Source of the DNA: an uncultured Candidatus Peribacteria bacterium
GTDB lineage: Bacteria; Patescibacteriota; Gracilibacteria; JAUYGZ01
Direction: 5' to 3'
Assembly: GCA_964352145.1 (NCBI GenBank)
Contig: CAYGQA010000001.1
Span: 152,617 to 216,616 of the forward strand
DNA length: 64,000 bases
This document shows, in pieces, positions 15,915 through 60,119 of the stretch (position 1 is the first letter of the stretch; each line of letters starts with the position of its first letter). The translations under genes were made by a program, and so were the position numbers. The notes below the pieces were generated by a model that saw only the letters and a program-made list of their open reading frames with translations, was not told where the DNA came from and searched no databases.

Positions 15915-15986
15915 GTAAGAGCTTCAATATGCTCAGTATTTTTTCTCTAAGAGTTTTAAGATGATTACTTCAATGACATTTAAAAA

Positions 15987-16014
15987 TTGAAATATACTTA
16001 ATTTATCGTATACT
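15987..16014 (+). promoter_or_regulatory. candidate promoter (TTGAAA-16-TATACT)
   Basis: TTGAAA 15987-15992, 16-nt spacer, TATACT 16009-16014. folE ATG at 16039. Confidence 0.4.
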
Positions 16015-16038
16015 TAAGCCTCAAAATACTCTTCCATC

Positions 16039-16632: not shown

Positions 16633-16634
16633 GT

Positions 16635-17930
16635 ATGAATCTCCAGATTAATCAGCTTGATATTCCTCACAGCCCACGCGAGCTTTTTTTGATGATTCCT
16701 GATGAAATTACAGGACTCGTGTACTTCTCTAGTGATGGATCTGAAGGCTCTCGATACAGTGTGATCGCTATGAATCCGGTAGAACAGTTCCGCTATGATG
16801 GTTCTCAAGTGTGGAGAAATGGGGAAAAAAGTGACAGAAGTTTTCATGAACTCATGAATGAGATCCTACGAGAGAGAAAAATCACAGCAAAGAGTCATCT
16901 CCCTTTTTTGGGAGGGCTGATTGGATCGATCGACTATGAATATGGATACGAATTAATGCAGCTGCCTAAAGCTCCAATGGGAGATCATCAAGTCTTCTGG
17001 AATGTCTACGACCATCTGCTTATCTTTGATCACCAAGAGAGTATATGGTCAGAAGTACTGAGATCCGAGACGCCAGCTTTTGCTTGGAGAGAATGGCCTG
17101 AGAGAAGAGAGAAGAAAAATCATGCTCTACAACTACAAGCCCTTTGGGATGAAGAGCAATATACCGAAGCCTTTCAAGAGGTCCATAAAAATATCCAAAA
17201 AGGGGAGATCTACCAGGCTTGTTTAAGCTTTCCTTTTGAAGGACCACAAGTACAGAGACCCCGGGAATCTTTTACTGAATTGATCGAGAGAAACCCAGCA
17301 CCCATGGCAGCTTATCTCGAGCAAGGGGACCGACAAATCCTCAGCCTGTCTCCAGAACGGTTCCTTCATTGGGATGGCTCTCGTATAGAAACAAAACCCA
17401 TCAAAGGGACTCGACCTCGTTCTTCAGATCCTTCAGAAGACTTGAAAATGCAGAAAGAACTTTTAGAAGATGAGAAAGAACGAGCTGAACTCAATATGAT
17501 CACTGATTTATTGAGGAATGATCTGTCCCAAGTCTGTGAAGCTGGCACCGTGCAAGTCTTGCTTCATCATGCCTTACAGACTTGTCCTAGTATCTGGCAT
17601 ACTTATTCACATATCGTCGGTAAAACGAAGCAGGGGATATCAGCTTGGGATATCATTCGGAAGACTTTCCCTGGAGGGTCTATCAGTGGATGTCCGAAGA
17701 GAAGAGCTTTAGAGATCCTAAGAGACTTAGAACATTCTCCTCGAGGGGTTTATACCGGTTGTATCGGATATATCAGTGACCATGGTCAGATGGACTTGAA
17801 TATTGCCATTCGCACACTAGAAAACAAGCCAACAGCAGTACGAGCAAGTTTTGGAGGAGGTATCGTCTACGATTCAGAAGCTAAAAGGGAATATCAGGAA
17901 TGTTATGATAAGGCTCGCATTTTTTTATAG
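16635..17930 (+). CDS. pabB: aminodeoxychorismate synthase component I (chorismate-binding enzyme)
   Basis: Motifs ERAELNMITDLLRNDL, FPGGSISGCPKRRALEIL and RGVYTGCIGY. The folate gene context favours PabB over TrpE. Confidence 0.8.
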   Translation: MNLQINQLDIPHSPRELFLMIPDEITGLVYFSSDGSEGSRYSVIAMNPVEQFRYDGSQVWRNGEKSDRSFHELMNEILRERKITAKSHLPFLGGLIGSIDYEYGYELMQLPKAPMGDHQVFWNVYDHLLIFDHQESIWSEVLRSETPAFAWREWPERREKKNHALQLQALWDEEQYTEAFQEVHKNIQKGEIYQACLSFPFEGPQVQRPRESFTELIERNPAPMAAYLEQGDRQILSLSPERFLHWDGSRIETKPIKGTRPRSSDPSEDLKMQKELLEDEKERAELNMITDLLRNDLSQVCEAGTVQVLLHHALQTCPSIWHTYSHIVGKTKQGISAWDIIRKTFPGGSISGCPKRRALEILRDLEHSPRGVYTGCIGYISDHGQMDLNIAIRTLENKPTAVRASFGGGIVYDSEAKREYQECYDKARIFL

Positions 17931-18463
17931 AGTTCATTGATACCCAAAGAACTCCATACCTTTATTTGCTGGGATTCCTCTGAAAAATACACTACGACCT
18001 CATAAGGGGGAATAAGAAGGAAATGCCGTTGGGCTATTTCTCTTAAGAGATCTTCTAGACGTGTTGTATGGAAGTTTATTTCTTTTAGGATAGAAGGGAT
18101 GTACGCGATGGATTGCTTGTATTCTCTTTCAAATCTTTCTTTACCGATACAGACACAGAGTTCATAGTTTGATTTTTTTGATTTGAGCATGCTGGCAAGT
18201 GCTCCTTCTTCCGCTCTACTGAGGACTGGGATTCTCTTTAACCTTTTTCCATCCGCTTCTTTTTCTTCTTGCACCTCTCCAATAGGGGAAAGCATCCAAT
18301 CGGACTCCAATAAAGTTCTTCTTTGCAGCAGCCATGCTTTTACGTTCCCGATAGCTTCTGAGACTTGTAATTCTTCCAAGCTCATTTCATTACTGCAGCT
18401 AGGTTCACTTGATAAAGCTTTATCTGATAATAATTCTTTTTTTGACATTTGTTGGTATGACAT
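17903..18463 (-). CDS. hypothetical protein (antisense-oriented insert in the folate cluster)
   Basis: 186-aa ORF. Its 3' end overlaps the pabB 3' end by 28 nt. No motif recognised. Confidence 0.45.
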   Translation of the reverse strand: MSYQQMSKKELLSDKALSSEPSCSNEMSLEELQVSEAIGNVKAWLLQRRTLLESDWMLSPIGEVQEEKEADGKRLKRIPVLSRAEEGALASMLKSKKSNYELCVCIGKERFEREYKQSIAYIPSILKEINFHTTRLEDLLREIAQRHFLLIPPYEVVVYFSEESQQIKVWSSLGINELYKKMRALS

Positions 18464-18581
18464 AACGACAATTATTTCGCCAATATAGTATCTATTTTTC
18501 TTGAAAAATCCAGCCCAGTCTCTTCAGCTTGGAGATGAGAAGCTTTCTTCTTATAATAAGAGTCAGTTTTTTCTCTTTCTT

Positions 18582-19397
18582 ATGCAGCAAATCTATACTT
18601 ACTTCGTTCCAAAAGGTTCATCGGAAGATCCTGATGGAGTCCTGAAAAATGATGCAGACTATCAGTTAGGAAAAGCTGTTTATACCTCTATCAGAACATA
18701 TGCAGGAAAGCCTTTTCGCTTAGAGAAGCATATGCTTCGATTACAAGCATCAGCTCAGTTATTAGGTATTGAGCTCAAACACCCTCTTGAAGAGATAAAA
18801 AAAGCACTTCAAGTACTGGTTTCAAAAAACACAAAAACTGAGCATTTTTTGAAAATAAGCCTCACTCCCAATAATGTCGTCATCATCTCTCGGCCTCTTC
18901 ATATCGATGAATCTATATACAAAGGTGTTTCTTTAGGGGTAGCAGAGCTTGAGAGAGAAATTGTTGAAGCCAAGACCTTTCCTACAGAGAACATCAAAAT
19001 GGCTTATGAGAAGGCTGCTTTGTCTGGTCATCATGATGTCTTACTAGTAGATAAGAAGGGAAATATCACTGAAGGATCACGATCAAATATCCTTTGGATC
19101 AAAGGAAATGCTTTGTATTTTTGTTCTCATGCACTTGGAGGCATCACTCAGGAGGAAGTCATACGTTGCGCAGCTGATCTTTTTGATACAGGAATAATCG
19201 AATGCATTCAAAAAACTTCTACAGGTCTTCCTCTTGATGAACTTGGCAACATAGATGAACTCTTCCTCACTCAAACGAGTCGAGGAATTGTACCAGTGAC
19301 TCGAGTAGGGGATATCAGTATAGCGAATGGAAAAGTTGGCCCTAAAACACTAATCCTTCGTCAGCAATTTCAAAAAAATACTCAGCACACACTATGA
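18582..19397 (+). CDS. pabC: aminodeoxychorismate lyase / class IV aminotransferase-fold protein
   Basis: Fold-type IV pattern FRLEKHMLRLQASAQLLGI. Lies between pabB and folP. Start set at ATG 18582, because the track start at 18501 is a TTG. Confidence 0.7.
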   Translation: MQQIYTYFVPKGSSEDPDGVLKNDADYQLGKAVYTSIRTYAGKPFRLEKHMLRLQASAQLLGIELKHPLEEIKKALQVLVSKNTKTEHFLKISLTPNNVVIISRPLHIDESIYKGVSLGVAELEREIVEAKTFPTENIKMAYEKAALSGHHDVLLVDKKGNITEGSRSNILWIKGNALYFCSHALGGITQEEVIRCAADLFDTGIIECIQKTSTGLPLDELGNIDELFLTQTSRGIVPVTRVGDISIANGKVGPKTLILRQQFQKNTQHTL

Positions 19398-20170
19398 CGA
19401 TCGACTTTAAAAAAAGGCTCTTAATGGGCATCTTGAATATCACTCCTGATTCTTTTTCAGACGGAGCTCAATTTATTGAAGAGAAAGAGGCTCTTCGTCG
19501 TATCGGAGAAATGCTCGAAGAGGGAGCTGATATCATCGATATCGGAGCTGAGTCTACTTTTGGACCTGAATCTCAGATCAGCCCTGAAGTAGAGTGGGAA
19601 CGACTTAAACCAGTGCTCACTCAGATCGACTATGATCGGGCATTTGTTTCTTTAGATACTTCTAAAGCAGCTGTTGCTGAGCAGGGACTCAAACTCGGTG
19701 TGCAAATGATCAATGATGTGACAGCTTTACATGGAGACGAGAGCATGATCGATGTTTTGCTGAAATACACACCCTATATCTGCTTGATGTATTCAGCTGA
19801 TAAGAGCCCATATGCGACTCGGACAGATCATCAATATGATGATGTGATTGAAACAGTTTCACAATTTTTGAAGAAACAGGCTGATCTTTTGATGAGAGCT
19901 GATTTCCCTCAAGAAAAGATCATCATTGATCCTGGCTTGGGATTCTTTCTTTCCTCAGATCCGGCTGTCAGCTGGGAAGTGATCGATCGCTTAAAGGAAC
20001 TGCGAGAGCTTGGCTTTCCTATCCTCATCGGTCCTTCTATGAAGTCTTTCTTAGGTGGAGAGATCGCTGATCGCGGACCAGCATCTGTGCTAGCCGCTCA
20101 GAAATGTTTTGAAAATGGAGCTAGCATCCTGAGGATTCATGATGTATCAGCTCATAGAGTTTTACAATAG
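19394..20170 (+). CDS. folP: dihydropteroate synthase
   Basis: Motifs GILNITPDSFSDG, DIGAEST, MINDVTAL and DPGLGF. Overlaps the pabC stop by 4 nt. Confidence 0.9.
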   Translation: MTIDFKKRLLMGILNITPDSFSDGAQFIEEKEALRRIGEMLEEGADIIDIGAESTFGPESQISPEVEWERLKPVLTQIDYDRAFVSLDTSKAAVAEQGLKLGVQMINDVTALHGDESMIDVLLKYTPYICLMYSADKSPYATRTDHQYDDVIETVSQFLKKQADLLMRADFPQEKIIIDPGLGFFLSSDPAVSWEVIDRLKELRELGFPILIGPSMKSFLGGEIADRGPASVLAAQKCFENGASILRIHDVSAHRVLQ

Positions 20171-35334: not shown

Positions 35335-36431
35335 TGGAGAGCTATTTTAAGATTTGTGAGGTTTTCTCGCATCAGAGAGAGGTAATCGACACCGGCATCA
35401 GCTTGATCTGGAGTGAGTCCTTCTATTGGGTTTAAAACCAAGATCTCCGCATTGGCTTCAGCAGCGATCGTCGTAGCCAGTTTATCACTGACGAGTGTTT
35501 CGAAGAAGACATGTTGTATTCCTTTGTCCTGAGCAAGATCAGTCAACTCTGCCATGTGCTTAGCTGATGGCTCTGACTGAGGAGAAATACCAGAAATAGA
35601 ATGAAAATCGATATCGTAACGAGCTCCTAAATACGCAAAAGCATCGTGACTAACGATCACTTCACTGAGTGCACAGCTGCTGAATGCTGCAGTAAAGTCT
35701 TGGTCCAAAGACTCTAAACTTTGCAGATACTCTGCCGCATTTTGTTGATAGATATCGCTGTGTTCTGGATCAATCTTGCTAAGTGTATCCATGATGATAG
35801 TGATCTGCTCTTGGGCTAATACTGGATCCAACCAGATATGTGGATCGAATTCTCCATGATTGTGTTCGTCATGATCTTCATGATCTTCTTCATCCTCGTG
35901 TTCATCTTCATGTTCATCATGGTTCTCTTCGTGCTCATCATCCTCGTGTTCATCTTCATGTTCATCATGGTTCTCTTCGTGCTCATCATCCTCGTGTTCA
36001 TCATGGTCTTCTTTCTCTTCTTCATGTTTCATAAGCTCGAGTTTTTGACTTATTTCGAGAGTGTTTTTGAGTGCAATACTCTTCTGTGCATCTTCTGCCC
36101 ACGGCTCAAAACTCGCTCCCATGTAGACAAAAAGATCTGCTGCTTGTAGTTCCGCGAGTTCACGTGGAGAAGGTTCGAAATCGTGAGGCTCTCCTCCTAC
36201 AGGAGTCATGTTTGTAACTTGTACTCGATCTCCTCCCACTTTTGCAGTGAAGTGAGCAAGTGGGTAAAAGCTGGCCATTATTTGTAAAGGACCATCGCTA
36301 TCGACTTGAGAGAGTTCTTGGTTTTCCTGTTCATTCTCGTGACCACGTCCGTCTTCATCATGGTGAATATCCGCTTGGCAAGCGCTTAAGAGGAGAGAGA
36401 ATGTGAGAAAAGGAATGAGTAATTTTTTCAT
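35325..36431 (-). CDS. znuA: zinc ABC transporter substrate-binding lipoprotein with His/Asp/Glu-rich loop
   Basis: Lipobox LLLSAC, cluster A-I SBP pattern, and a ~55-aa loop HDEHEDDEHEENHDEHEDEHED... typical of ZnuA. Confidence 0.85.
   Translation of the reverse strand: MKKLLIPFLTFSLLLSACQADIHHDEDGRGHENEQENQELSQVDSDGPLQIMASFYPLAHFTAKVGGDRVQVTNMTPVGGEPHDFEPSPRELAELQAADLFVYMGASFEPWAEDAQKSIALKNTLEISQKLELMKHEEEKEDHDEHEDDEHEENHDEHEDEHEDDEHEENHDEHEDEHEDEEDHEDHDEHNHGEFDPHIWLDPVLAQEQITIIMDTLSKIDPEHSDIYQQNAAEYLQSLESLDQDFTAAFSSCALSEVIVSHDAFAYLGARYDIDFHSISGISPQSEPSAKHMAELTDLAQDKGIQHVFFETLVSDKLATTIAAEANAEILVLNPIEGLTPDQADAGVDYLSLMRENLTNLKIALQCQ
35891..36004. repeat. 48-bp in-frame tandem repeat (2.4 units) encoding the ZnuA acidic/His loop
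   Basis: catcctcgtgttcatcttcatgttcatcatggttctcttcgtgctcat occurs at 35891-35938 and 35939-35986, with a partial third unit. Confidence 0.85.
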
Positions 36432-44981: not shown

Positions 44982-46115
44982 TCACTGCACTAAAACCTCT
45001 ATTTTCTTTCTCCTTGCTGGCACCTCTAATCTCTCCATGGCTTTTGTTTCTATTAGACGTACTTGTTCTCTACTACAGCCTAAAATTTTCCCTATCTTCA
45101 CTAAACTGATTCTACCTGAAGAATATAAACCATTCCTCATGCATAATACTTCCCTTTGAAGGAATGTGAGTTCATTAAGGACAGCCCTAAACCTTTTCTT
45201 TATTTCTTCTCTTTCTATTTGATCAGGCACTTTTTCTTGCTTGTAGGCTATACAGTCTTTGAGTTTCACCGGTCTTTGATCGACTTCTTGTTCATCATGT
45301 ACTTCTTTCGGTGACTTTGCTTTTTCTTCGAAAGAAAAGAGGTGTGCAGTTGCTATCATGACTCGTATGATTCGCTGTCGAGGCTTGTCAAAATTTCTTG
45401 CGATATCATCAAAACAAGCCCTTTCTCCATTTTCTGCAAAGGACTCAATGTAATCATCATATTGGCGTATTTCTCTGTAATAATTATTATTGATTTTAAG
45501 CATATATTTAGTAACTCCGATGAAATTCATCATTTTTCCTATTATACATCTGTATGCATAAGTAATAAATGATACCTCCAAGTTTCCTTGAAAGCTTACT
45601 ACAGCTTCTATAAGAGCTATATTTCCTTCTTGCACAAGATCCATACGATCCCATTCGTTTCTCTTTCGAAATTTATTTGCAATTGATACAACGAGCCTTG
45701 AATATTGATGTACTACCTTTTCAGTAAGTATATCAATATTTATCCATTGATCGATAATAAATTGACTTAATCCGTTTTCTGGATTTTCTCTCACATACTG
45801 ATCACATAGCCCTCTGAGTTCAGCCTCTTTGAGCTTTGAACCTTCAATAGAAGCTTTTTCATTTTCAGGACCCAGAGCTTGCTCATGGAGATTCGATGTA
45901 TCTCTGTCTTCTGGATTTGTATTTTGATTTTTTTGATGAAGATTAAGTAATCCAAGAAAAAATGGATGAGCATAAACTTTCTTAAAAAGCTCGTCTTTAT
46001 GTGTTTTTCTTTTACATAAAAGCTCTAAAACTTGTTCATTACTCAGACGTTCCTTGACAGGGCCAATACTTTCGAAGTAATCATCTAAGTCATTTTGGTA
46101 GATGTTCTCTTTCAT
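44982..46115 (-). CDS. sigma-70-family RNA polymerase sigma factor with atypical N-terminal ~150 aa
   Basis: Region 2-like DLVQEGNIALIEAV and region 4 HTH SLVKIGKILGCSREQVRLIETKAMERL. Confidence 0.75.
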   Translation of the reverse strand: MKENIYQNDLDDYFESIGPVKERLSNEQVLELLCKRKTHKDELFKKVYAHPFFLGLLNLHQKNQNTNPEDRDTSNLHEQALGPENEKASIEGSKLKEAELRGLCDQYVRENPENGLSQFIIDQWINIDILTEKVVHQYSRLVVSIANKFRKRNEWDRMDLVQEGNIALIEAVVSFQGNLEVSFITYAYRCIIGKMMNFIGVTKYMLKINNNYYREIRQYDDYIESFAENGERACFDDIARNFDKPRQRIIRVMIATAHLFSFEEKAKSPKEVHDEQEVDQRPVKLKDCIAYKQEKVPDQIEREEIKKRFRAVLNELTFLQREVLCMRNGLYSSGRISLVKIGKILGCSREQVRLIETKAMERLEVPARRKKIEVLVQ

Positions 46116-46217
46116 TCGATTATTTACGAAAATTTCTTAAAAAAGTATCATAATGTAATATGTTTTTTATGAATTCGCCACTCTTAAAAGAGAGAAGGTG
46201 CTGTTATTTATAATCAA

Positions 46218-46802
46218 CTAATCAAAGAGAAAGCTCAACCAGTACCAGCTATACGCCAAGTATTCCCGACTAAGTCTTGCTTTCGTGTTCGCTCTGGCAT
46301 CCTCTACGGGAATCATACGTCCTACCTTGATCCCGAGATGAGATGCAGTCATGTTTGCTCTGGCAAGATGAAAGTCATGACTAAGGATATCTACACTGTC
46401 GCATGCTTGTTGGCGAATGAGTGACTTACTGAAGGTCAGATTTTCCAGAGTGCTTGTACTCTTATCTTCGAGGATGAGTTTCTCTTCGGATATACCTGAG
46501 ATGATCAGCTGTTCTTTCATCACTTCAGCTTCTGTTTTTTCTTCATCAAGACTCCCTCCCGTGAGGATGACAGACTGGACTTCATCCTTGATGACTTTCT
46601 GCGCCATAGATAGCCGCTCCCTCATCATCAAACCTGGGATACCTCCAGGCAAACTTCGAGAGCCTAATATGATCAAGCACTCAGAGGGATTCTTGTCTTC
46701 CCATTGAGGATTGTAATGGTTTACCTGATATACACTGTGTCCAAAAATCAGAACAGGACTGATAAGTGTAGCGATAATCAAACTGGTCACGTATTTCTTC
46801 AT
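46218..46802 (-). CDS. DUF218 (YdcF/ElyC/SanA-like) protein
   Basis: N-terminal TM helix, then CLIILGS, VILTGG, EAEVMKEQL and EDKSTSTLENL. Confidence 0.7.
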   Translation of the reverse strand: MKKYVTSLIIATLISPVLIFGHSVYQVNHYNPQWEDKNPSECLIILGSRSLPGGIPGLMMRERLSMAQKVIKDEVQSVILTGGSLDEEKTEAEVMKEQLIISGISEEKLILEDKSTSTLENLTFSKSLIRQQACDSVDILSHDFHLARANMTASHLGIKVGRMIPVEDARANTKARLSREYLAYSWYWLSFLFD

Positions 46803-46859
46803 AAAAAAGGTAGCTCGATTATAGGCGAGCGCTTGAGATGAGCAATACGAATCTGTGAT

Positions 46860-47474
46860 TTATGCTGCCTTTTGCTTGAGCACTTGTAAAACACTTGTTC
46901 TGGTCGCATCCGAGAAGCGAATAATGGGTTTCTGCAAAGGTGTGAACGCTTTCGAAACCCGGAAGGGGACTAGCTGACCATCATTCTTAGAAACGTGTGA
47001 TTTTTCATCTAAATGGTACCCATTTTCCCCAGCTTCTAGATCCTTGAAAGACTGTTTTCCCATGGTGACGGCCATCCCTCTCTTCACAGCTAGTTTTACG
47101 ACTGAGAGTTGCGTCGTTTCGATCATAAGTGAATAGCGGAGAGCATCTCTATTCGAAAGAGCTTGAACTCGTTGCTCGAGAGCGTAGAGCATCTCTGTAC
47201 CGATCCCTTGTCCTCTGAATGCAGGATTGACGATACGATGCGAGACATTGATGAGACCAGATACCTCTTCCCATATCAGGTGGAAGACGTCTAGATTTTT
47301 GTAAGAAAGAAGCGCTGAATATCCTGATTGAGGCAAAGGAAAGAATCGGAACTCAAGATTTTCTCCGAGCTGCACACATTGATAGGCTTCACTCGTTTTC
47401 ATGACCTGTTTGATCTTCTCCCAGTGTGTAGGAGTTAATTGTAGTGTTTCGTTTTGGTTTTTTTGTTTTTCCAT
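46860..47474 (-). CDS. GNAT-family acetyltransferase-like protein
   Basis: VNPAFRGQGIGTEMLYALE (Q/RxxGxG/A motif). Confidence 0.6.
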   Translation of the reverse strand: MEKQKNQNETLQLTPTHWEKIKQVMKTSEAYQCVQLGENLEFRFFPLPQSGYSALLSYKNLDVFHLIWEEVSGLINVSHRIVNPAFRGQGIGTEMLYALEQRVQALSNRDALRYSLMIETTQLSVVKLAVKRGMAVTMGKQSFKDLEAGENGYHLDEKSHVSKNDGQLVPFRVSKAFTPLQKPIIRFSDATRTSVLQVLKQKAA

Positions 47475-47770
47475 GGTTGGCTCGAAGCTTGAAGCAAGAA
47501 GCGAGAGGCTTGATGCTTGAAGCAGAATTCGGATTTTTTTTATTTTTTGACTTCTTTTTTTGAAATTTGGAAACCGAAAATTGCTCAGATTTCTTATTAT
47601 TATACCATTTTTATTATTCTTAGCCCATTGTGCTTTCTGTACTTATTCTTTAAAATGTTGCGGAGTTATAATTGAGATATTTGAGAATAATGAGTCGCTT
47701 CAAGCTTCCAGCCTCAAGCAAAATTTTTCCTAATTAGTCCAATTCAATCCTAGAGTATCCAAAAAACATC

Positions 47771-48214
47771 ATGAAAATTTTAAGTACCAACAAAAAGGCC
47801 AAATTTGATTACGAAATCGTCGAAGAATACTCGGCTGGTATTAAGCTAGAAGGACGAGAAATCAAATCGCTACGCAATCAAAAACCCGCTTTTGCAGGGA
47901 GTTATGTCACGATCAGCAATGGAAAACCTATGCTCCATGATCTGAATATCCCTCGATATAAGCACGACCCTTCTCCAGAATATGATCCAAAGAGGGAACG
48001 TCTGCTTCTTTTGAAGCAATCAGAAATCAACCGTATCCAAGGAAAACTCAAAGAACAGGGAGTGACTGTGGTACCCATCGCGATCGGACTTGAGCGGCAA
48101 TGGGCCAAGGTGACGATAGGTATCGTCCGTGGTAAAAAGCAGCATGACAAAAGACAGACCATCCGTGACCGTGAAGATAAGCGAAAAATGCAACGAGTGA
48201 TGAAGCAATATTAA
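47771..48214 (+). CDS. smpB: SsrA-binding protein SmpB
   Basis: NKKAKFDYEI, GIKLEGREIKSLR and a basic C-terminal tail KKQHDKRQTIRDREDKRKM. Confidence 0.9.
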   Translation: MKILSTNKKAKFDYEIVEEYSAGIKLEGREIKSLRNQKPAFAGSYVTISNGKPMLHDLNIPRYKHDPSPEYDPKRERLLLLKQSEINRIQGKLKEQGVTVVPIAIGLERQWAKVTIGIVRGKKQHDKRQTIRDREDKRKMQRVMKQY

Positions 48215-48246
48215 AATGTTTATATTTATATCAAGGAGAAGCTAAT

Positions 48247-48423
48247 ATGGGCAAAAAAGAAAAACAATTTTATCTTTGGTGGAGAGATCGTGTCTCTCTT
48301 TCAGAGAAATTAAGAATAATGTCAATTGAAAGCTCTGTAGTGATTAAAATGATGCAAACTGTTGATATTTTTTTAATTGATCCTGGTAAAAACCTCCCTG
48401 AAAAATTCAATACTTTTCACTGA
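48247..48423 (+). CDS. possible small protein (58 aa)
   Basis: ATG 48247 is preceded by AAGGAG at -13 to -8, one of the very few canonical SD sequences I saw in the window. Encodes MGKKEKQFYLWWRDRVSLSEK.... Below the track cutoff. Confidence 0.35.
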   Translation: MGKKEKQFYLWWRDRVSLSEKLRIMSIESSVVIKMMQTVDIFLIDPGKNLPEKFNTFH

Positions 48424-48497
48424 CTAAAGTAATAAAGAAAAATCTCATACTGCTTTTTTAGATTATCTTAAGCCTTACAAAAGCTCAGTCAATCTAA

Positions 48498-48545
48498 GCC
48501 CTTCTCTTGAGGCAAGAGAGGAAAGCCTTTAGGCAGGGTGAGTTC
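48498..48545. repeat. CTCACC-hairpin repeat family, solo copy (inverted orientation)
   Basis: The reverse complement gaactcaccctgcctaaaggctttcctctcttgcctcaagagaagggc matches the first ~26 nt of the 32298 copy at all but 2 positions. Confidence 0.6.
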
Positions 48546-48601
48546 ATCAGCGGCGAAGACGATCCACAAATAAGCTCAACTATTTTTAAAATAGTAAAAT
48601 T

Positions 48602-48680
48602 GTGCCTCGCTACCACACAGACCTGAGTCCCTACGAGGGATACAGTGAAGTATGGACAGCGAGGCGATGCTCTCTGCTAG
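48602..48680 (-). terminator. cassette 3' hairpin H1 (conserved stem, U-rich tail), end of array
   Basis: Minus strand GCCUCGCUG-U-CCAUAC...GUGUGG-UAGCGAGGC with an internal UCCC-UCGUA-GGGA hairpin, followed by AAUUUUACUAUUUU. The G-U pairs work only on the minus strand. Confidence 0.55.
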
Positions 48681-49273
48681 TTTTCGATGTTTGCCATTTT
48701 TGAATTTACAATTCTTCTTAAACGTATAAATAAAGAGGCAAATTTTGGCATTAAATCCTCCTTATTTTCGGCTGCTAATTCTCTATCGAGAAAACTTTTT
48801 GCTATGGTTAGAAGAGCAAGTGAATCTACAAAACCTAGGTAATATTTGTAGAGAAAATCATCCATATCCTCAATCTCTTTCTGTGAGAGATCTTTAGGAT
48901 TTAGCATTGCGTTCTGTATCACTTCTAAACTAACTTTCTTTTTTTCTTCTTTTTTTTCTCGAGCTTCTGCTTCTTCATCGAGAACTTTTTGAGCCTCCTT
49001 AATCAAAAGTTTTTTTAAATTAGTTTCAATTTCGGAGTTTGGAACTAATCCTTTTTTTTCTTCATCTGCTTCTACAACCAATTCTGAATTATAATCCATT
49101 ACATAATATGTAAAGTTTTTTTCCAAAGGAATTTCCGAAGAATATTTTTGAAGGAGCTCCTTGAAGGGTTTTGTTTTTTCAGTACTTAAACTATCCCCTC
49201 TAGTAAGAGCCTCTAAACTCAGTCCGGACTCTTCTTTTCTTGAAAAAGAGATTTCTAAAATTATTGGATTCAT
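48677..49273 (-). CDS. cassette A protein (hypothetical, 198 aa)
   Basis: ORF body directly 3' of conserved leader L1. Start placed at AUG 49271-49273, because the track start at 49318 lies inside the leader. Confidence 0.6.
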   Translation of the reverse strand: MNPIILEISFSRKEESGLSLEALTRGDSLSTEKTKPFKELLQKYSSEIPLEKNFTYYVMDYNSELVVEADEEKKGLVPNSEIETNLKKLLIKEAQKVLDEEAEAREKKEEKKKVSLEVIQNAMLNPKDLSQKEIEDMDDFLYKYYLGFVDSLALLTIAKSFLDRELAAENKEDLMPKFASLFIRLRRIVNSKMANIEN

Positions 49274-49280
49274 CACATTA

Positions 49281-49396
49281 CCAACCAGCAGAGAGCGAAC
49301 TCCCTGCGGCCTTTTCATATATATTTTTTACAAATGAATACCCAAAGCAGAAGCTTTGAATGAGGCTCCACACGGAGTTCTCTGAATACTGATTGG
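49281..49396 (-). ncRNA. conserved structured cassette leader L1
   Basis: Closing helices CCAAUCAG/CUGGUUGG, CAGAG/CUCUG, AACUCC/GGAGUU and UGUGG/CCGCA, with apical hairpin CAAAGC-UUCU-GCUUUG. Nearly identical to L2-L4. Confidence 0.55.
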
Positions 49397-49425
49397 TTCG
49401 ATTTTTCAAGGTTCTTTAAAAATGC

Positions 49426-49501
49426 GTGCCTCGCTGCCATACCGGTCTGGCTCCCACGAAGGGAGGAGATATGGTCAACGAGGCGTGGCCTCTGCTGTTA
49501 G
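49426..49501 (-). terminator. cassette 3' hairpin H2
   Basis: GCCUCGUUG-A-CCAUA...UAUGG-CAGCGAGGC with internal CUCCC-UUCGU-GGGAG, followed by GCAUUUUUAAAG. Overlaps the cassette B stop codon. Confidence 0.5.
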
Positions 49502-50091
49502 TCGTCTTTCTTGAGCATAATTCTTATCAAATCAAGTTGTGCTGCTACTTGATTGTGAAGAGTAAGATCCTTGTCTTCTGTGCAGTCTCCATATTCTTTC
49601 ATTTCATCAAGATCTTTTTCAATCTGAACTGCGACGGGCAATATCCTGAGGATATCTGTAAGTAAGTCAGGTATATTTACCCCATCTGTTTTATCTCTCA
49701 AAGAGAAATTCACTATGTCACTTATTATGTCTTCCATTCTTTTACTAGTTTCTTTTATCTCTTGATCTTCCAAGTCTGATAGAATTGTTTTCGTAGTGTT
49801 TACGAGAAAAGCACCCAAATCTTTGAGAAAATCATCAGATAAATTTCCTCCTTGAGTTGCTTTTTCAGAACTCAAAAGACCTGAATCACTTGAGTAAACA
49901 AGAAAATCAAACTCTATTTCTGCAGGAATGTTATCCTTGTTTTGACAGAGAAAATGCTGGAATATATTTAGTTTTGCAGGATTTAACACTTCTTTTTCTT
50001 TGATGGTTAAGCTCACCATCATTCCTTTTTCTACTTTCTTACAGAAGCAAAGCCTTAAAACCTCTTCAGATGAATTTCCGCGTACTACCAT
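49498..50091 (-). CDS. cassette B protein (hypothetical, 197 aa)
   Basis: ORF body 3' of leader L2. Start placed at AUG 50089-50091. Ends ...KKDD, followed by UAACAGCAGAGG. Confidence 0.6.
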   Translation of the reverse strand: MVVRGNSSEEVLRLCFCKKVEKGMMVSLTIKEKEVLNPAKLNIFQHFLCQNKDNIPAEIEFDFLVYSSDSGLLSSEKATQGGNLSDDFLKDLGAFLVNTTKTILSDLEDQEIKETSKRMEDIISDIVNFSLRDKTDGVNIPDLLTDILRILPVAVQIEKDLDEMKEYGDCTEDKDLTLHNQVAAQLDLIRIMLKKDD

Positions 50092-50098
50092 CACATCA

Positions 50099-50214
50099 CC
50101 AACCAGCAGAGAGCGAACTCCCTGCGGCCCTTTCATATATATTTTTTACAAATGAATACCCAAAGCCGAAGCTTTGAATGAGGCTCCACACGGAGTTCTC
50201 TGAATACTGATTGG
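50099..50214 (-). ncRNA. conserved structured cassette leader L2
   Basis: Same helices as L1. The apical hairpin is CAAAGC-UUCG-GCUUUG. Confidence 0.55.
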
Positions 50215-50243
50215 CCCGTTTTTTCAAGGTTCTTAATAAAGTT

Positions 50244-50320
50244 GTGCCATCGCTGCCATATCGGTTCTTCTCCCTCGGAGGGAGGAGATATGGACAGCGA
50301 GGCGATGCCTCTGCTGTTAG
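50244..50320 (-). terminator. cassette 3' hairpin H3
   Basis: GCCUCGCUG-U-CCAUAUC...GAUAUGG-CAGCGAUGGC with internal CUCCC-UCCGA-GGGAG, followed by AACUUUAUUAAG. Overlaps the cassette C stop codon. Confidence 0.5.
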
Positions 50321-50934
50321 TCGTCTTGACTTAAAAGTTCTCTAAGCTCCTGAATAAGCTTCTTTGTTTTTGAAAGAGTCGGAATTTCGGAGATGAATTT
50401 TTTCTCATCTGCATCTAACTTACCTGTTACATCTTTCAAGTCACAAAAAAGAGACTCCGCTCTAAGTGCATTATCAATTTCTGCTAAACAAGTCTTCAAT
50501 TTGTCTGCAAAAGCACAATCAAGAGCCTCAATATCTAAAACACTCACCCCTCTTAACTTCTTCGTAGCTTTTTCAAGATTTACTTCTTTTTCATCAAGAC
50601 GCTGAAGTAAATTTGAAGCTAAAGTGAGCATACGCCCACGAAGTCTTTTGCAAAATTTTGAAGCAGACTTTATGCTGCCTTCGATTTTTCTAAAAGACAA
50701 AGCCTCTGTGTCGAGTACTACCTCAAAACTGTATATCTCCTCGGATTCAAACTCTTCTTTGTTCTTGTTTATGAACGCTTCCATGCGTTCCAAGCTGGTT
50801 TCAATAAGCTCTTTCTCTTTACAAGAAAAAGTTACTTCTACGTTCCTTGAGCCTTTTCTTCTGAAAAAAGATACATGAAGTACTTGATCGTCTTCATAAA
50901 GCTGTCCTTCAGAAAAATCTCCAATTACTACCAT
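50317..50934 (-). CDS. cassette C protein (hypothetical, 205 aa)
   Basis: ORF body 3' of leader L3. Start placed at AUG 50932-50934. The 263-aa track ORF reads through the leader and promoter. Ends ...SQDD, followed by UAACAGCAGAGG. Confidence 0.6.
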   Translation of the reverse strand: MVVIGDFSEGQLYEDDQVLHVSFFRRKGSRNVEVTFSCKEKELIETSLERMEAFINKNKEEFESEEIYSFEVVLDTEALSFRKIEGSIKSASKFCKRLRGRMLTLASNLLQRLDEKEVNLEKATKKLRGVSVLDIEALDCAFADKLKTCLAEIDNALRAESLFCDLKDVTGKLDADEKKFISEIPTLSKTKKLIQELRELLSQDD

Positions 50935-50941
50935 CACATTA

Positions 50942-51056
50942 CCAACCAGCAGAGAGCGAACTCCCTGTGGCCCTTCATACGCATAACTTACAAATGAATA
51001 CCCAAAGTCGAAACTTTGAGTGAGGCTCCACACGGAGTTCTCTGAATACTGATTGG
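50942..51056 (-). ncRNA. conserved structured cassette leader L3
   Basis: Same helices as L1. The apical hairpin CAAAGU-UUCG-ACUUUG shows a compensatory C-G to U-A change. CCACA replaces CCGCA, turning a U-G pair into U-A. Confidence 0.55.
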
Positions 51057-51089
51057 TTCGATTTTTCAAAGTACACCAAAAGAGTGCAC

Positions 51090-51118
51090 AGTTTACTTTA
51101 CATCTCATATTATGTCAA
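51090..51118 (-). promoter_or_regulatory. cassette promoter P2 (TTGACA-17-TAAACT)
   Basis: Minus strand: TTGACA (51118-51113), 17-nt spacer, TAAACT (51095-51090). The block is shared with P1. Confidence 0.55.
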
Positions 51119-51142
51119 TAATTTCTGACATTATAAAAAGTT

Positions 51143-51217
51143 GTGCGTCGCTGCCATACGTTCGATTCCCTACGAGGGAGGAGGTATGGACAGCGAGGCA
51201 TGTGCCTCTGCTGTTAA
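51143..51217 (-). terminator. cassette 3' hairpin H4
   Basis: GCCUCGCUG-U-CCAUACC...ACGUAUGG-CAGCGACGC with internal UCCC-UCGUA-GGGA, followed by AACUUUUUAUAAUG. Confidence 0.5.
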
Positions 51218-51245
51218 TTTAAGTTCTCTTCTTTGCTTGATCAAA

Positions 51246-51551
51246 CTACTGATTCATTCTCATTCCAAGGTTGATGGCATGCGCATACAGTTGATGCAGA
51301 ATATCAGACGACATACTCAAAAGATTCTCGTTTGGTTTTACAGCAATTCCACCATCATGAGGTTCATATACCTCAATACTGATTACTTTCCCTATAGGAA
51401 AGTTCTCAATATTCTGTTCGATATACTCCACTAAAAATTTTTGAACTTCTTTTAAAGAATCTGGAATCTCCTGTGAGAAGTTGATATCAAATTCTTTGGA
51501 AGATTTTTTTCTGAGAATCTCAATTCGGATGAGTTCTTTTTTAGTCCCCAT
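51246..51551 (-). CDS. cassette D protein (hypothetical, 101 aa; N-domain only)
   Basis: ORF body 3' of leader L4. Start placed at AUG 51549-51551, because the track start at 51563 is a TTG inside the leader helix. Confidence 0.6.
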   Translation of the reverse strand: MGTKKELIRIEILRKKSSKEFDINFSQEIPDSLKEVQKFLVEYIEQNIENFPIGKVISIEVYEPHDGGIAVKPNENLLSMSSDILHQLYAHAINLGMRMNQ

Positions 51552-51559
51552 TCTTTTTA

Positions 51560-51681
51560 CCAACCAGCAGAGAGCGAACTCCCTGCGGCCCTTTCTTTAC
51601 ACTTGTTTCTAAAAACAACATAAAACCCAAAGCAGAAGCTTTGAATGAGGCTCCACACGGAGTTCTCTGAATACTGATTGG
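51560..51681 (-). ncRNA. conserved structured cassette leader L4
   Basis: Same closing helices and apical hairpin as L1. The A/U linker is replaced by a small extra hairpin, UUGUUU-UUAG-AAACAA. Confidence 0.55.
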
Positions 51682-51714
51682 TTCGATTTTTCAAAGTACA
51701 CCAAAAGAGTGCAC

Positions 51715-51743
51715 AGTTTACTTTACATTTATAATTCTGTCAA
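51715..51743 (-). promoter_or_regulatory. cassette promoter P1 (TTGACA-17-TAAACT)
   Basis: Minus strand: TTGACA (51743-51738), 17-nt spacer, TAAACT (51720-51715). It lies 31 nt downstream of the asnS stop. Confidence 0.55.
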
Positions 51744-51773
51744 CAATCTCTGACATTTAATCTGAAAAATGTC

Positions 51774-53063
51774 TTAAGGAGCCAGACGGTTCATAAGACG
51801 AGGGAAGGGGATGGTCTCTCTGACATGCTTCAATCCGCACATCCATCCGACGATACGCTCGAGTCCATAACCAAATCCAGAGTGAGGAACTGATCCGTAT
51901 CGACGTAAGTCCATATACCATTCAAGGCCTTTTTCAGGGACATTATGCTCAGACATCCATTTTTTCATGAGCTCTAGATCATCTTCTCGTTGTGAACCTC
52001 CGATGATTTCTCCGTATCCTTCAGGAGCAAGAAGATCGACACAGAGACAATTTTGTTCATCTTCAGTTCTCTTCATGTAGAAGGCTTTTACCTTCGCTGG
52101 GTAATGAGTGACGAAGATTGGTTGGTCATATTTTTTTGTCAGGATAGTCTCATCATCACCTCCAAGGTCTCTATCAGCGGTGATATCAGAGCCCATTGAT
52201 TGCAGCTCAGCGACTGCCTCAGCGTGAGTCATACGTTTGAAAGGACCTTTGATCTTTTTCAGTGGCTCGAGATCTCTTTCGAGAGTGAGCAGTTCTTTTT
52301 CTTTATTTTCCAAGACTCTTTTGATGACATGCAACATGAGGGATTCTTGGATATCGATGATTCCTTCGAGGTCACAGAAGGTAGCCTCAGCATCCATCAT
52401 CCAAAACTCTGTCAGGTGACGTCTTGTCTTTGATTTCTCTGAACGAAATACTGGTCCAAAATCAAAACCACGTCCACAACTCATCACGGCTGCCTCAAGG
52501 TAGAGTTGTCCAGATTGAGCGAGATAAGCTTGTCCTTCGTCGAAGTATTCCATTTCAAAGAGTTCTGTTGAACCTTCACAGGCATTATTCGTCATGATCG
52601 GTGTATCGACTTTCATAAAGCCGTTTGTATGCATCCATTCGAAGGTGGCTCGGATGACTTCGTCACGGACTCTTTGTACTGCGAGTTGTTTTTGAGAGCG
52701 AAGCCAGAGATGTCTATTGTCGAGGAGGAACTCCGGACCATGTTCTTTTTTTCCAATTGGGTATTCTTCCGCTATTTGGATGATTTCTATATCAGAAACC
52801 TGTATTTCAAACACATCCTCTTTTTTTGGATGTTGAGAGATGGTACCAGTCACTCGTACAGATGATTCGATAGTCAGTTGTTCTGCTTTTTCCATGACTT
52901 CTGGAGCGACTGCAGAAGCCTCTACGACTCCTTGCATTACCCCGGTCCCATCACGTAGCTGAAGGAAGGCAATCTTCCCAGACCCTCGCTTGTTGTACAT
53001 CCATCCTTGGATAGTGACCGTTTGGTCGACGAAATCTTTAGCATCTTTAATGAAAAAACTCAT
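51774..53063 (-). CDS. asnS: asparaginyl-tRNA synthetase
   Basis: Class IIb enzyme with an OB-fold N-terminus, FRSEKSKTRRHLTEFWMMDAE and GFGYGLERIV. Length is typical of AsnRS. Start set at ATG 53061-53063, because the track start is a TTG. Confidence 0.85.
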   Translation of the reverse strand: MSFFIKDAKDFVDQTVTIQGWMYNKRGSGKIAFLQLRDGTGVMQGVVEASAVAPEVMEKAEQLTIESSVRVTGTISQHPKKEDVFEIQVSDIEIIQIAEEYPIGKKEHGPEFLLDNRHLWLRSQKQLAVQRVRDEVIRATFEWMHTNGFMKVDTPIMTNNACEGSTELFEMEYFDEGQAYLAQSGQLYLEAAVMSCGRGFDFGPVFRSEKSKTRRHLTEFWMMDAEATFCDLEGIIDIQESLMLHVIKRVLENKEKELLTLERDLEPLKKIKGPFKRMTHAEAVAELQSMGSDITADRDLGGDDETILTKKYDQPIFVTHYPAKVKAFYMKRTEDEQNCLCVDLLAPEGYGEIIGGSQREDDLELMKKWMSEHNVPEKGLEWYMDLRRYGSVPHSGFGYGLERIVGWMCGLKHVRETIPFPRLMNRLAP

Positions 53064-53272
53064 GGAAAACAATAAAAAAAACAGTGATAGCAGTATAATG
53101 GAGCCTTCATAAATACCAAAAGAGAATGCGTCGTTTTATTACGGTGACAAAGTAAACTCCTCTAAAGATTCTTGCCAAAGATGAAGTTCAGATGAAGACT
53201 ATAGATCATTTTATTGAAGACCTTGAGAGGCAGGCGTAGGATAAATATCCATTATGAATAAACACAGGAATC

Positions 53273-53767
53273 ATGAGCCTTACGAAAAATGATCTCCAGC
53301 AGATCAAAAATGTCGTCACTGAAGTGATCGATGAAAAAGTCCCGAAGATGATAGATGAAGGTATAGAAAGGAAAGTGCCAAAAATGATAGAAGATGCTAT
53401 CGATAAGAAGGTACCTAAAATGATAGAAGACGCTATCGACAAGAAAGTGCCTGCAATGATCCAAGAAGGAGCTTCTGAAGTTTTTGTACAAGGCTTCGAG
53501 AATTATGTCATCCCATATGTAGACTCAAAATTTAATGAACTAAAAGGAGAAATGGATCACAGATTTGAAAAAATGGATATTAGGTTTGAAAAAGTAGATG
53601 AGACATTCAAAAAACTCAACAACAATATGGATAAGCATGTCTTAAGTCTTCACGAAAGAATCGATGACTCAATAACACTTAATGATCGTTATTATTACGA
53701 CTGTGCCACAAAGAACGAGCATAAAGCTCTTATCACAGGAGTGAATCGACTTGAATCTGCTCTTTAA
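53273..53767 (+). CDS. hypothetical helical protein with 12-aa tandem repeats (paralog of 10404..10709)
   Basis: KVPKMIDEGIER / KVPKMIEDAIDK / KVPKMIEDAIDK / KVPAMIQEG. The N-terminus and DHRFEK motif are shared with the 10404 ORF. Confidence 0.55.
   Translation: MSLTKNDLQQIKNVVTEVIDEKVPKMIDEGIERKVPKMIEDAIDKKVPKMIEDAIDKKVPAMIQEGASEVFVQGFENYVIPYVDSKFNELKGEMDHRFEKMDIRFEKVDETFKKLNNNMDKHVLSLHERIDDSITLNDRYYYDCATKNEHKALITGVNRLESAL
53336..53470. repeat. 36-bp in-frame tandem repeat (about 3.75 units)
   Basis: Units at 53336-53371, 53372-53407 and 53408-53443, with a partial unit at 53444-53470. Confidence 0.85.
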
Positions 53768-54501
53768 TTGCTCTGCTGCCACATCACCTCGAAGAGACTT
53801 GATAAGATATCGTAAGCAGCTTGAGAATCCAGGATGAAACCAAACATCTCTTGTTTTTTGAATGAGCTTATAGAAACCTTACTAGCTCCGAAAAGCAGTA
53901 ACTCTATATATAACTCTTTTTGCGAAAGAGAATCTAAAAGTCGATGTTCTGTATAAATCCCGGGATCATCTTTTTTGATCTTTTGATTCTTTTTTGTGTT
54001 GGGGCATATAAGCCTAGCGAAGTTCTTTCGATCTTTTCTCATCGGGATGATTTCTTTTCTGATGTACTCAAAAAGCGCCGCTGGCATATGACTATAATCA
54101 GTAAAACCCATCGTTTCACCTTTTTCATGACCCAACTCTAAGAGGATCTCTTTCATTCCTTCTAAACCGTCGAAGAAACGTATACGAGGTTTTAGAGGGC
54201 TTTCAAAAGCCATATCTATCAACTGAGGAAGCATATTTTCAGCGAGCGCTGCTGATTGTTTAAAACGATTCACTAAAATCTGAGGATTAAGTGCAGAAGC
54301 ATACTTCACTCCTTTTTTCTTTATCGTTTTAACAACAGCTTTTTTTTCTAAAACTTCTATGACGGGGTAAACAGTACTTCTTTTGATCCCAGTTTTTGCT
54401 GCGACTTGAGAGTAGGGGAGCTCTCCCATGCTTAAAATGGCTAAATAAATCTTCGCTTCTTTTTCTGAGAAACCGTTTTTTATCAGGATGTCTTGTATCA
54501 T
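53764..54501 (-). CDS. TrmB-family transcriptional regulator
   Basis: N-terminal wHTH GFSEKEAKIYLAILSMGELPYSQVAAKTGIKRSTVYPVIEVLEKKAVV. Confidence 0.7.
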   Translation of the reverse strand: MIQDILIKNGFSEKEAKIYLAILSMGELPYSQVAAKTGIKRSTVYPVIEVLEKKAVVKTIKKKGVKYASALNPQILVNRFKQSAALAENMLPQLIDMAFESPLKPRIRFFDGLEGMKEILLELGHEKGETMGFTDYSHMPAALFEYIRKEIIPMRKDRKNFARLICPNTKKNQKIKKDDPGIYTEHRLLDSLSQKELYIELLLFGASKVSISSFKKQEMFGFILDSQAAYDILSSLFEVMWQQSN

Positions 54502-58907: not shown

Positions 58908-58964
58908 GTCAAGGGTCGAGAGTCAAGGGTCGAGAGCATCACTTGACTCTCGACCCTTGACTCT
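58908..58964. repeat. 14-bp direct repeat x2 plus 18-bp perfect inverted repeat
   Basis: gtcaagggtcgaga occurs twice (58908-58935). The arm agagtcaagggtcgagag (58919-58936) pairs perfectly with ctctcgacccttgactct (58947-58964), leaving a 10-nt loop. Confidence 0.85.
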
Positions 58965-59049
58965 GGACCGTAATAAACACTTTCTAAAACTCGTAAAATC
59001 AACAAAATCCTCTATACTGGAACCCCATTATTCCCTTAGGAATCACCTC

Positions 59050-60051
59050 ATGTTCTCCTGGTCTGACTATAATAACGACAAACCTGCTATCATCCACTCT
59101 CCGATGTCTGGCTATACTGATTCGGCATGCAAGCAGATTTCAAGGATGGTTGCACCTGACTGCATTGTCGTGACGGAGTTTTTATCAACGGATGCGATTT
59201 TTTATAACTCGAAAAAGACGCTTAAGATGATGGCTATCGACGAATCTGAGCATCCTGTCATACTTCAAGTGTTTGGGAAGAATCCAGAGCGCTTCGTCCA
59301 TGCTGCGAAGATGGCGGAGGAAATGGGCTACGATGGTGTCGATATCAACATGGGTTGTCCTGCGAAAAAAATCATTGGTTCAGATCACGGATCAGCTTTA
59401 GTGAAAATTAAAAACAGGTGTACGGCTATGAAGATCGTCTCTGACATGGCAAAAGCCGTGAAAATACCAATCTCAGTGAAAACTCGTATTGGCTGGGACA
59501 ACTACGATGATTTGGTAAATTTTTGTCTAGAACTAGAAAAAAATGGCTGCGCTTCTGTCGGGATCCACGGAAGAACTACTAAACAAGCCTATACTGGTAT
59601 GGCCAACTGGGATCCAATCTACGAAGTCAAAAGACAGCTCAAAATCCCCGTCATGGGTAATGGTGACGTCATGTCTGTCAGTGCTTATCGTGAACGAATA
59701 GGGGATCTTGATGGTGTATTCGTCGCCCGTGGGACCTTCGGTGATCCATGGATTTTGGCTGATATCCTAGAATACACGAAGAACAAAGAAGAATTTGATA
59801 AACTTTCAGATGAAGAGCTAGATGCTCGTTTCCCTCGAGCAGGGGATATCCCATGGGAACGGAAAAAACCTGTCGCTATCGCTCACTGCGAAGTATCTGT
59901 GAAAACTAAAGGAGAGAAGCTGGGTATGCTTGAAATGCGAAAGCACTTAGCGGCGTATATCAAAGGAATCCCAAATGCGAAAGAGTATCGAGAAAAACTC
60001 GTCCGAGTCGAAAGCTTGGATGAGGCGGTGAAGATTATTGAGGGGATCTAG
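59050..60051 (+). CDS. tRNA-dihydrouridine synthase
   Basis: SPMSGYTD, DINMGCP and IHGRT. Start set at ATG 59050, because the track start at 58957 is a TTG inside the inverted repeat. Confidence 0.85.
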   Translation: MFSWSDYNNDKPAIIHSPMSGYTDSACKQISRMVAPDCIVVTEFLSTDAIFYNSKKTLKMMAIDESEHPVILQVFGKNPERFVHAAKMAEEMGYDGVDINMGCPAKKIIGSDHGSALVKIKNRCTAMKIVSDMAKAVKIPISVKTRIGWDNYDDLVNFCLELEKNGCASVGIHGRTTKQAYTGMANWDPIYEVKRQLKIPVMGNGDVMSVSAYRERIGDLDGVFVARGTFGDPWILADILEYTKNKEEFDKLSDEELDARFPRAGDIPWERKKPVAIAHCEVSVKTKGEKLGMLEMRKHLAAYIKGIPNAKEYREKLVRVESLDEAVKIIEGI

Positions 60052-60060
60052 TGGGAAGCC

Positions 60061-60119
60061 GGAATATTTTTTATCGTAGAGGCGTTGCAATGCAAGGCCT
60101 CTACGATAAAAAATATTCC
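60061..60119. terminator. long perfect hairpin between convergent genes (bidirectional terminator candidate)
   Basis: ggaatattttttatcgtagaggc (60061-60083) pairs with gcctctacgataaaaaatattcc (60097-60119): a 23-bp perfect stem with a 13-nt loop that is itself partly palindromic. Confidence 0.7.

Follow-up and report, generated by a model that had tools for sequence, protein, structure and literature searches.

We report a rod-like RNA leader that occurs in four almost identical copies of ~116-122 nt on the minus strand of a patescibacterial genome, with each copy lying 5' of a start codon. It was found in a 64,000-nt stretch of DNA (here called the window), and the genome is placed near Peregrinibacteria/Peribacteria MAGs. 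The leader rod is real and had not been described before; it is a candidate RNA control element, seen in one genome only. In kind, it is a structured mRNA leader or intercistronic hairpin, which is a known type of element, and it belongs to no described RNA family; what is unusual is that the orphan paralogues bracketed by the leader and by a companion hairpin on the 3' side are hyper-divergent. We propose, with a probability of roughly 45%, that the rod acts as a shared cis-acting double-stranded RNA (dsRNA) signal, i.e., an RNase III-type processing site or a site for a dsRNA-binding factor, for processing or translation gating.

The leaders belong to a minus-strand array of four tandem units located between asnS (51774-53072, minus) and smpB (47771-48214, plus). 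Each unit is composed of a ~125-nt leader, an ORF, and a ~75-nt hairpin directly 3' of the stop codon. The features of the array are as follows:

50099-50214, minus: leader copy B, with rod arms, P3 hairpin, and variable linker (-54.7 kcal/mol, z = -6.0)
49281-49396, minus: leader copy A (161.5 bits with the covariance model, z = -6.1)
50942-51056, minus: leader copy C, 1 nt shorter by deletion, with C-G to U-A in P3 and U-G to U-A in the rod (z = -6.4)
51560-51681, minus: leader copy D, with the linker replaced and 6 nt longer (z = -6.3)
48677-49273, minus: cassette A ORF, 198 aa counted from the AUG 3' of the rod
49498-50091, minus: cassette B ORF, 197 aa counted from the AUG 3' of the rod
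50317-50936, minus: cassette C ORF, 205 aa counted from the AUG 3' of the rod
51246-51551, minus: cassette D ORF, 101 aa, N-terminal domain only
48602-48680, minus: 3' element of A, a long hairpin directly 3' of the stop codon
49426-49497, minus: 3' element of B, a hairpin
50243-50316, minus: 3' element of C, a hairpin
51143-51213, minus: 3' element of D, a hairpin
51715-51743, minus: promoter-like TTGACA-N17-TAAACT 5' of leader D (10/12 consensus matches), next to a small hairpin (51696-51714)
51090-51118, minus: promoter-like site 5' of leader C, like that of D, next to a small 5' hairpin (51071-51089)

Inspection of the sequences upstream of leaders B and A revealed no such promoter-like site, and these two units directly follow the 3' hairpin of the preceding unit. 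With promoter-like sites before C and D alone, transcription of B and A must run on from the preceding unit through its 3' hairpin. The rod was also considered as a single-strand promoter (Frpo-like), an idea rejected by eye, as it has no properly spaced -35/-10 pair. Between the 3' hairpin of cassette A and smpB lie ~385 nt (48215-48600) that form part of an island missing from the closest relative; gene callers annotate a 58-aa ORF there on the plus strand (48247-48423), which has no Pfam match.

In the upstream regions of 47 ORFs, we found that the genes of the window almost uniformly lack a Shine-Dalgarno sequence. Where TATAAT-like -10 boxes are present, they are located at a median distance of ~20 nt 5' of the start codon, which implies very short leaders, and a structured leader of ~150 nt is therefore exceptional here. 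All three stop codons are used (TAA 26, TAG 14, and TGA 7), indicating the standard genetic code.

The initial annotation had placed one leader at positions 50099-50214, and arm-probe matches show this to be the exact span of the copy B rod, which runs from CCAATCAG to CTGGTTGG on the minus strand. Probes corresponding to the 5' arm (23 nt) and the 3' arm (24 nt) each gave four matches with 0 mismatches, compared with 0 expected by chance; even with 3 mismatches allowed, there were no matches in the 64 kb beyond the four copies. The copies adopt one common fold of -51.9 to -54.7 kcal/mol (z = -6.0 to -6.4), where z-scores refer to 200 dinucleotide shuffles, of which 0/200 folded as well in every copy. 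The plus strand folds far more weakly (-32 to -38 kcal/mol; z = -2.9 to -3.8) because each copy contains 5-7 G-U pairs on the minus strand, at which the opposite strand would have A-C.

According to RNAalifold, the rod opens with an 11-bp P1 and a 3x3 internal loop; 2 bp, a bulge, and 7 bp come next, and a G-G mismatch separates these from the last 5 bp. It leads into a three-way junction that carries P3, a conserved 9-bp hairpin, alongside a 3-bp stem and a second hairpin that is weak and variable (P4). The energy of this minimum-free-energy (MFE) register is -49 to -51 kcal/mol. A 24-bp register had been described earlier (helices of 8, 5, 6, and 5 bp separated by a UAUU bulge, a CGCU bulge, and a G-G mismatch); with its interior optimized, it is a legal structure of -45 to -47 kcal/mol, but it is not the MFE and lies 3.7 kcal/mol above the register with the 11-bp P1. 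The apical hairpin of that description, CAAAGY-UUCK-RCUUUG, is present on reading both the sequence and the alignment. In contexts of ~200 nt, the rod folds as an autonomous domain, and the sequence around the AUG immediately 3' of it stays open; the spacer between rod and AUG is 7 nt long in A, B, and C and 8 nt long in D, within the 6-8 nt claimed previously.

In the reading that we prefer, each copy would be the non-coding mRNA leader of its paralogue and, for B and A, an intercistronic spacer. The rod would serve as a static signal of high stability. As its 3' arm stops 7-8 nt short of an AUG that lacks a Shine-Dalgarno sequence, the region from -8 to -40, which the 30S subunit needs open, would be locked in dsRNA, and in the predicted fold the rod should dominate 30S access. 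The signal would cut the C-B-A transcript, and any asnS read-through into D, into single-gene mRNAs, whose 3' ends the companion hairpin would protect. In addition, it would open the start-codon region or keep it closed, placing the four paralogues under joint post-transcriptional control. We infer transcription, cleavage or binding, and the direction of regulation. An RNase III substrate has at least ~20 bp of near-continuous dsRNA, and the predicted rod provides 25 bp in all four copies, interrupted by a 3x3 loop, a bulge, and a mismatch. No RNase III gene was detected among the ORFs scanned in the 64-kb window.

RNase III processing hairpins of polycistronic mRNA include the R sites of the phage T7 early region and those in leaders where cleavage unmasks a start codon. 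The leader resembles T7-type sites in being a long imperfect duplex with internal loops that lies between cistrons or 5' of a start, in having a duplex of at least two helical turns, and in leaving a stable hairpin at the 3' end of the upstream message. In contrast to the predicted 116- to 122-nt rod with its three-way junction, the T7 sites are simple hairpins of ~50-60 nt; they have no sequence relationship to the leader, and leader cleavage is only a prediction. The nearest documented analogue of the proposed dsRNA signal is provided by the Correia elements (~105-155 bp), which are co-transcribed with the adjacent gene and form mRNA hairpins that are bound or cleaved by RNase III, so that expression of the adjacent gene is altered (PMC2649163).

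The four cassette proteins share 16-23% pairwise identity, such that homology is barely detectable and they are distant paralogues; by comparison, the junction blocks, i.e., the non-coding flanks, are 87-100% identical. A word-indexed protein search with B as the query returned B alone, and an exhaustive HMMER profile search of 1.84 billion representatives yielded only the four array proteins and two marginal low-complexity matches. The proteins have no match in Pfam, PHROGs, or PADLOC, and no signal peptides. AlphaFold predicts an N-terminal beta-beta-alpha-beta-beta-alpha domain with confidence (pLDDT 90). With the models as queries, Foldseek returned no match better than E = 0.01 against PDB and BFVD; ERH- and p19-like Foldseek matches were dropped as not significant.

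Across the four leader copies, 3 of the 69 rod columns vary, as do 4/23 in P3, 21/32 in the linker with P4, and 9/18 in the flanks. The difference between the rod and the remaining columns (34/73) is highly significant (Fisher p = 2e-9), and so is that between the rod and the linker enclosed by its arms (p = 7e-11). These sequence comparisons support the view that the leader is under much stronger constraint than its surroundings. Of the 28 rod pairs, 25 never vary, 2 show one-sided changes that keep pairing (A-U to G-U and U-G to U-A), and 1 is broken. In P3, there is one compensatory change from C-G to U-A and one change from U-G to C-G. Thus, pairing is preserved in all but one of the helix changes in the rod and P3. 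Two further double changes occur in P4, though this hairpin is unconvincing (z = -2 to 0).

Two of the substitutions had been cited as covariation support by the initial annotation, namely, a C-G to U-A swap on both arms of the apical stem and CCGCA becoming CCACA (U-G to U-A), and the alignment places both of them in copy C. The support itself was overstated: no pair in the rod changes on both sides, and such double changes number one in P3 and two in the weak P4. In column shuffles, 48/500 equaled the observed number of covarying pairs. The covariation is therefore weak and too small to prove a selected fold, and it could not be enlarged because no homologue was found in any collection searched. 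The invariance of the arms would fit sequence-specific recognition or concerted evolution as well as structure alone.

Concerted evolution leads to an explanation that we regard as unlikely but deserving of serious consideration, in which the conservation is a DNA-level by-product of unequal crossing-over or gene conversion of 240-nt tandem junction blocks, each comprising an ORF end, a 3' hairpin, a spacer, and a leader, or of homology arms for cassette swapping, and the fold has no function. The conserved blocks do span the C-to-B and B-to-A junctions as units (240 nt, 91% identity) and reach a few codons into the ORFs, which, like the zero covariation in the rod arms, favors this explanation. 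The absence of the array from the closest relative indicates that it is young or dynamic, and a post-stop segment that resembles the leader 5' arm could be a cassette-bounding direct repeat. However, variation is far from uniform: a 32-nt linker that is 66% variable is enclosed by two invariant 33-nt arms, a pattern that a simple conversion tract over the leader cannot explain. The strand asymmetry that G-U pairs confer on the structure and the retention of pairing in the few helix changes also speak against a functionless fold, and independent assemblies of four sequencing runs agree at 100% identity and give no hint of rearrangement.

Variable gene families with conserved UTRs are known from the Mycoplasma vsp/vsa/vpma loci, which rely on site-specific inversion and encode surface lipoproteins, and from the hyperplastic regions of T4-type phages, in which promoter-stem-loop cassettes undergo phage recombination. 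The array shares with them near-identical non-coding flanks, highly divergent coding bodies, and a tandem arrangement. It differs in having no inverted copies or signal peptides, in that no recombinase occurs among the scanned ORFs, and in that the flank is itself a large RNA fold.

Searches beyond the window returned no other copy of the leader. The earlier statement that the fold matches no Rfam family was borne out by a scan of Rfam 15 at E <= 10 over positions 46000-54000, which yielded nothing but noise (15-21 bits) without meaningful overlap with any leader; at gathering thresholds, the whole window contains one tRNA only. Transition-tolerant (R/Y) arm patterns had 0 matches in IMG/VR, GTDB representative genomes, and JGI metagenomes, sets that evidently do not include the source genome, so that 0 matches here means that they include no close relative. 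The 3'-hairpin pattern likewise had 0 matches in metagenomes and IMG/VR, and blastn of a 248-nt junction block produced only chance matches of ~26 nt in phages and none in plasmids. A covariance model of the leader (R1) run over the asnS loci of 80 relatives (1.14 Mb) recovered the four window copies only, as it did with filters off on the closest relative and Logan contigs.

In the closest representative, asnS is 81% identical and is followed by 120 nt and then by a bidirectional terminator and smpB; the ~3.5-kb island is missing. Logan contigs from four runs match the window at 100% identity; they break where the leader is repeated, which independently confirms the two ends of the array, and they show no population variation. 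Repeats 3' of asnS in one relative (L050) proved to be a conserved coding domain and were rejected as an analogous array.

Several other relatives carry near-perfect palindromic rods of ~125 nt that fold at -60 to -73 kcal/mol and do so equally well on either strand; one of these rods lies directly 3' of asnS. Their positions are as follows:

L078: 5550-5672
L013: 280-402
L034: 18489-18612
L051: 4708-4832 and 6276-6400
L062: 4692-4795 and 9354-9458

Three of these rods have common interior motifs (CAAGGAAACAAG, an apical GTATTAAAAATAC hairpin, and GTTGACGCAG) and differ in their arms, which makes them one family with covarying arms. In L013, the palindrome adjoins a 6S RNA match at 392-551 (minus) that scores 45.9 bits, just under the gathering score of 46.4.

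Such palindromes bear on an origin that we consider improbable, whereby the leader is a domesticated miniature inverted repeat of the Correia/ERIC/REPIN type that was inserted 5' of an ancestral gene and then co-duplicated. The leader is indeed a ~120-nt imperfect palindrome with terminal inverted repeats of ~30 nt, relatives do harbor intergenic palindromic rods of ~125 nt, including the one right after asnS, and Correia elements of ~105-155 bp are likewise imperfect palindromes that occur 5' of a variable paralogous family (opa), where they act at the RNA level (PMC2649163). Correia elements, however, number ~120 dispersed copies in both orientations, generate target duplications, and can disrupt genes, whereas the leader has four copies within the 64 kb in a single orientation and at a fixed distance from the AUG, all of them in the array. 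There is no target-site duplication either (CGAA on one side and TAAT on the other). Moreover, the G-U pairs of the leader make it strand-specific, unlike the palindromes of the relatives, which fold alike on both strands and match neither Rfam nor model R1.

Elsewhere in the window, two ~58-nt palindromes (58914-58969 and 60061-60119; 86% and 95% self-complementary) flank a dihydrouridine synthase gene (58957-60051) and may be bidirectional terminators. In-frame repeats with a 36-nt period (KVPKMIEDAIDK) occur at 53336-53460 in a 164-aa orphan adjoining asnS, and others with a 48-nt period at 35887-36002 within a ZnuA-like gene. In addition, positions 15300-20170 encode a folate-pathway cluster, comprising HPPK, GTP cyclohydrolase I, a chorismate-binding enzyme, a class IV aminotransferase, and a pterin-binding DHPS; Patescibacteria are usually of reduced biosynthesis, which makes such a cluster notable.

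The three-way junction and its internal loops, which are invariant across the copies, are also features that might be expected of a ligand- or protein-responsive attenuator or riboswitch, in which P3 and its U-rich tail would form a terminator modulated by formation of the rod. In every copy, P3 with the U-rich run resembles a terminator, the tail being best in D (UUUUAUGUUGUUUUU), and attenuation would be an alternative way for the leader to act. Nevertheless, there is a single dominant fold on which MFE and centroid agree, P3 is nested inside the rod in that fold, and neither prediction offers a mutually exclusive alternative. Switches do not typically have an 11-bp P1 within a rod as stable as -52 to -55 kcal/mol, there is no Rfam match even at E <= 10, and the orphan genes have no metabolic link. 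We therefore find such a switch rather implausible; a ligand or temperature sensor in general seems unlikely, as the predicted rod reaches -52 to -55 kcal/mol and no other fold competes with it.

The companion 3' hairpins are stable (z = -3.7 to -4.9). They do not have the form of an intrinsic terminator, as the U-run begins 5-7 nt past the stem, and a terminator scan made no call. Their G-U pairs had been said to fix the transcribed strand, a claim that does not hold, since 2 of the 4 hairpins fold equally well or better on the plus strand. The possibility of a tRNA-like 3' element was rejected, as the T-loop-like GTTCGATTC is found in one copy only. At the ends of the ORFs and their stop codons, segments of the form ACGACTAA-CAG-CAGAGGC (minus 49488-49505, 50307-50327, 51204-51216, and 48668-48684) resemble the leader 5' arm minus its UAUU bulge and can pair over 12-13 bp with the leader 3' arm. 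In addition, CAGCAGAGGC looks like CAGCGAGGC, the 3' side of the companion hairpin, and a small alternative hairpin is possible right after the stop. These ORF-end repeats could be cassette-bounding direct repeats or competing pairings.

A more speculative proposal, to which we attach only a small chance, is that the 5' rod, the 3' hairpin, and the repeat found at both cassette ends (ACYAA(Y)CAG..CAGAG) constitute a structure-defined cassette frame, or else that the four proteins are dsRNA-binding autoregulators of the rod. If the former were true, this would be a new recombination or RNA-level system of Patescibacteria that uses folded signals without an integron integrase and that duplicates, exchanges, or individually expresses fast-evolving orphan genes. 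If the latter were true, the four orphan proteins would represent a new family of dsRNA-binding proteins that recognize the invariant rod.

That the leader is non-coding RNA, as originally claimed, agrees with our findings that no frame with a start codon is consistently open and that reading frames do not explain the conservation. We consider it very unlikely that the leader is coding, either as an N-terminal MK[G/R]PQGVRSLLVG extension or as a small protein of 43-45 aa that spans the leader (TTG...NRTNQYSENSVWSL...SAGW, followed by a stop). In favor of the extension, gene callers start A and B at an upstream ATG. Its frame behaves as the initial annotation described, with the ATG present in A and B but shifted in C, where the 1-nt deletion leaves only a 14-codon uORF closing in UGAUG, and absent in D, where the peptide frame is also out of frame with the ORF body. 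The TTG-initiated ORF (MKNRTNQYSENSVWSLIQSF...SAGW) extends across the whole leader in A (49278-49409), B (50096-50227), and D (51557-51694), all on the minus strand, and the 6-nt insertion of D preserves its frame. In copy C, however, the 1-nt deletion breaks this ORF and fuses it to the main ORF, and its only start is a TTG without a Shine-Dalgarno sequence. From translations read by eye, ~6 of the ~8 differences between copies in this frame are non-synonymous and ~2 synonymous, and two of the differences are the compensatory RNA pair. The leader peptides have no Pfam or PHROG match, and the TTG-initiated ORF is probably fortuitous.

Finally, tandem ORFs spaced by ~120-nt imperfect palindromes with extra-helical bases superficially resemble integron arrays such as those of the Vibrio cholerae repeats (VCR), but an integron-like array with the rod as an attC-type folded recombination site between cassettes is scarcely credible, given that there are no RYYYAAC/GTTRRRY core sites at the hairpin base (at the rod base, CCAATCAG/CTGGTTGG, GTTGGTA fails the core consensus at 2 positions and its complement is absent on the 5' side), that no tyrosine recombinase occurs among the scanned window ORFs, that C and D have their own promoter-like sites, that the ORFs are paralogous rather than unrelated, and that the leader lies at the cassette 5' end, with a separate hairpin occupying the 3' end, where attC would sit. 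More broadly, the scanned ORFs of the window include no integrase, transposase, or reverse transcriptase, and the neighbors of the array are housekeeping genes.

If the rod is a functional RNA, as in the dsRNA-signal reading that we favor, it would join a very short list of structured, lineage-specific regulatory RNAs known from the candidate phyla radiation, a group in which, to our knowledge, leaders are short and lack a Shine-Dalgarno sequence and post-transcriptional control is almost unknown. The pairing of invariant untranslated frames with paralogues of ~20% identity marks a small, recently acquired island in which selection seems to be stronger on the RNA signals than on the proteins. 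The island thus offers an unusual, testable setting for the origin and regulation of orphan gene families.
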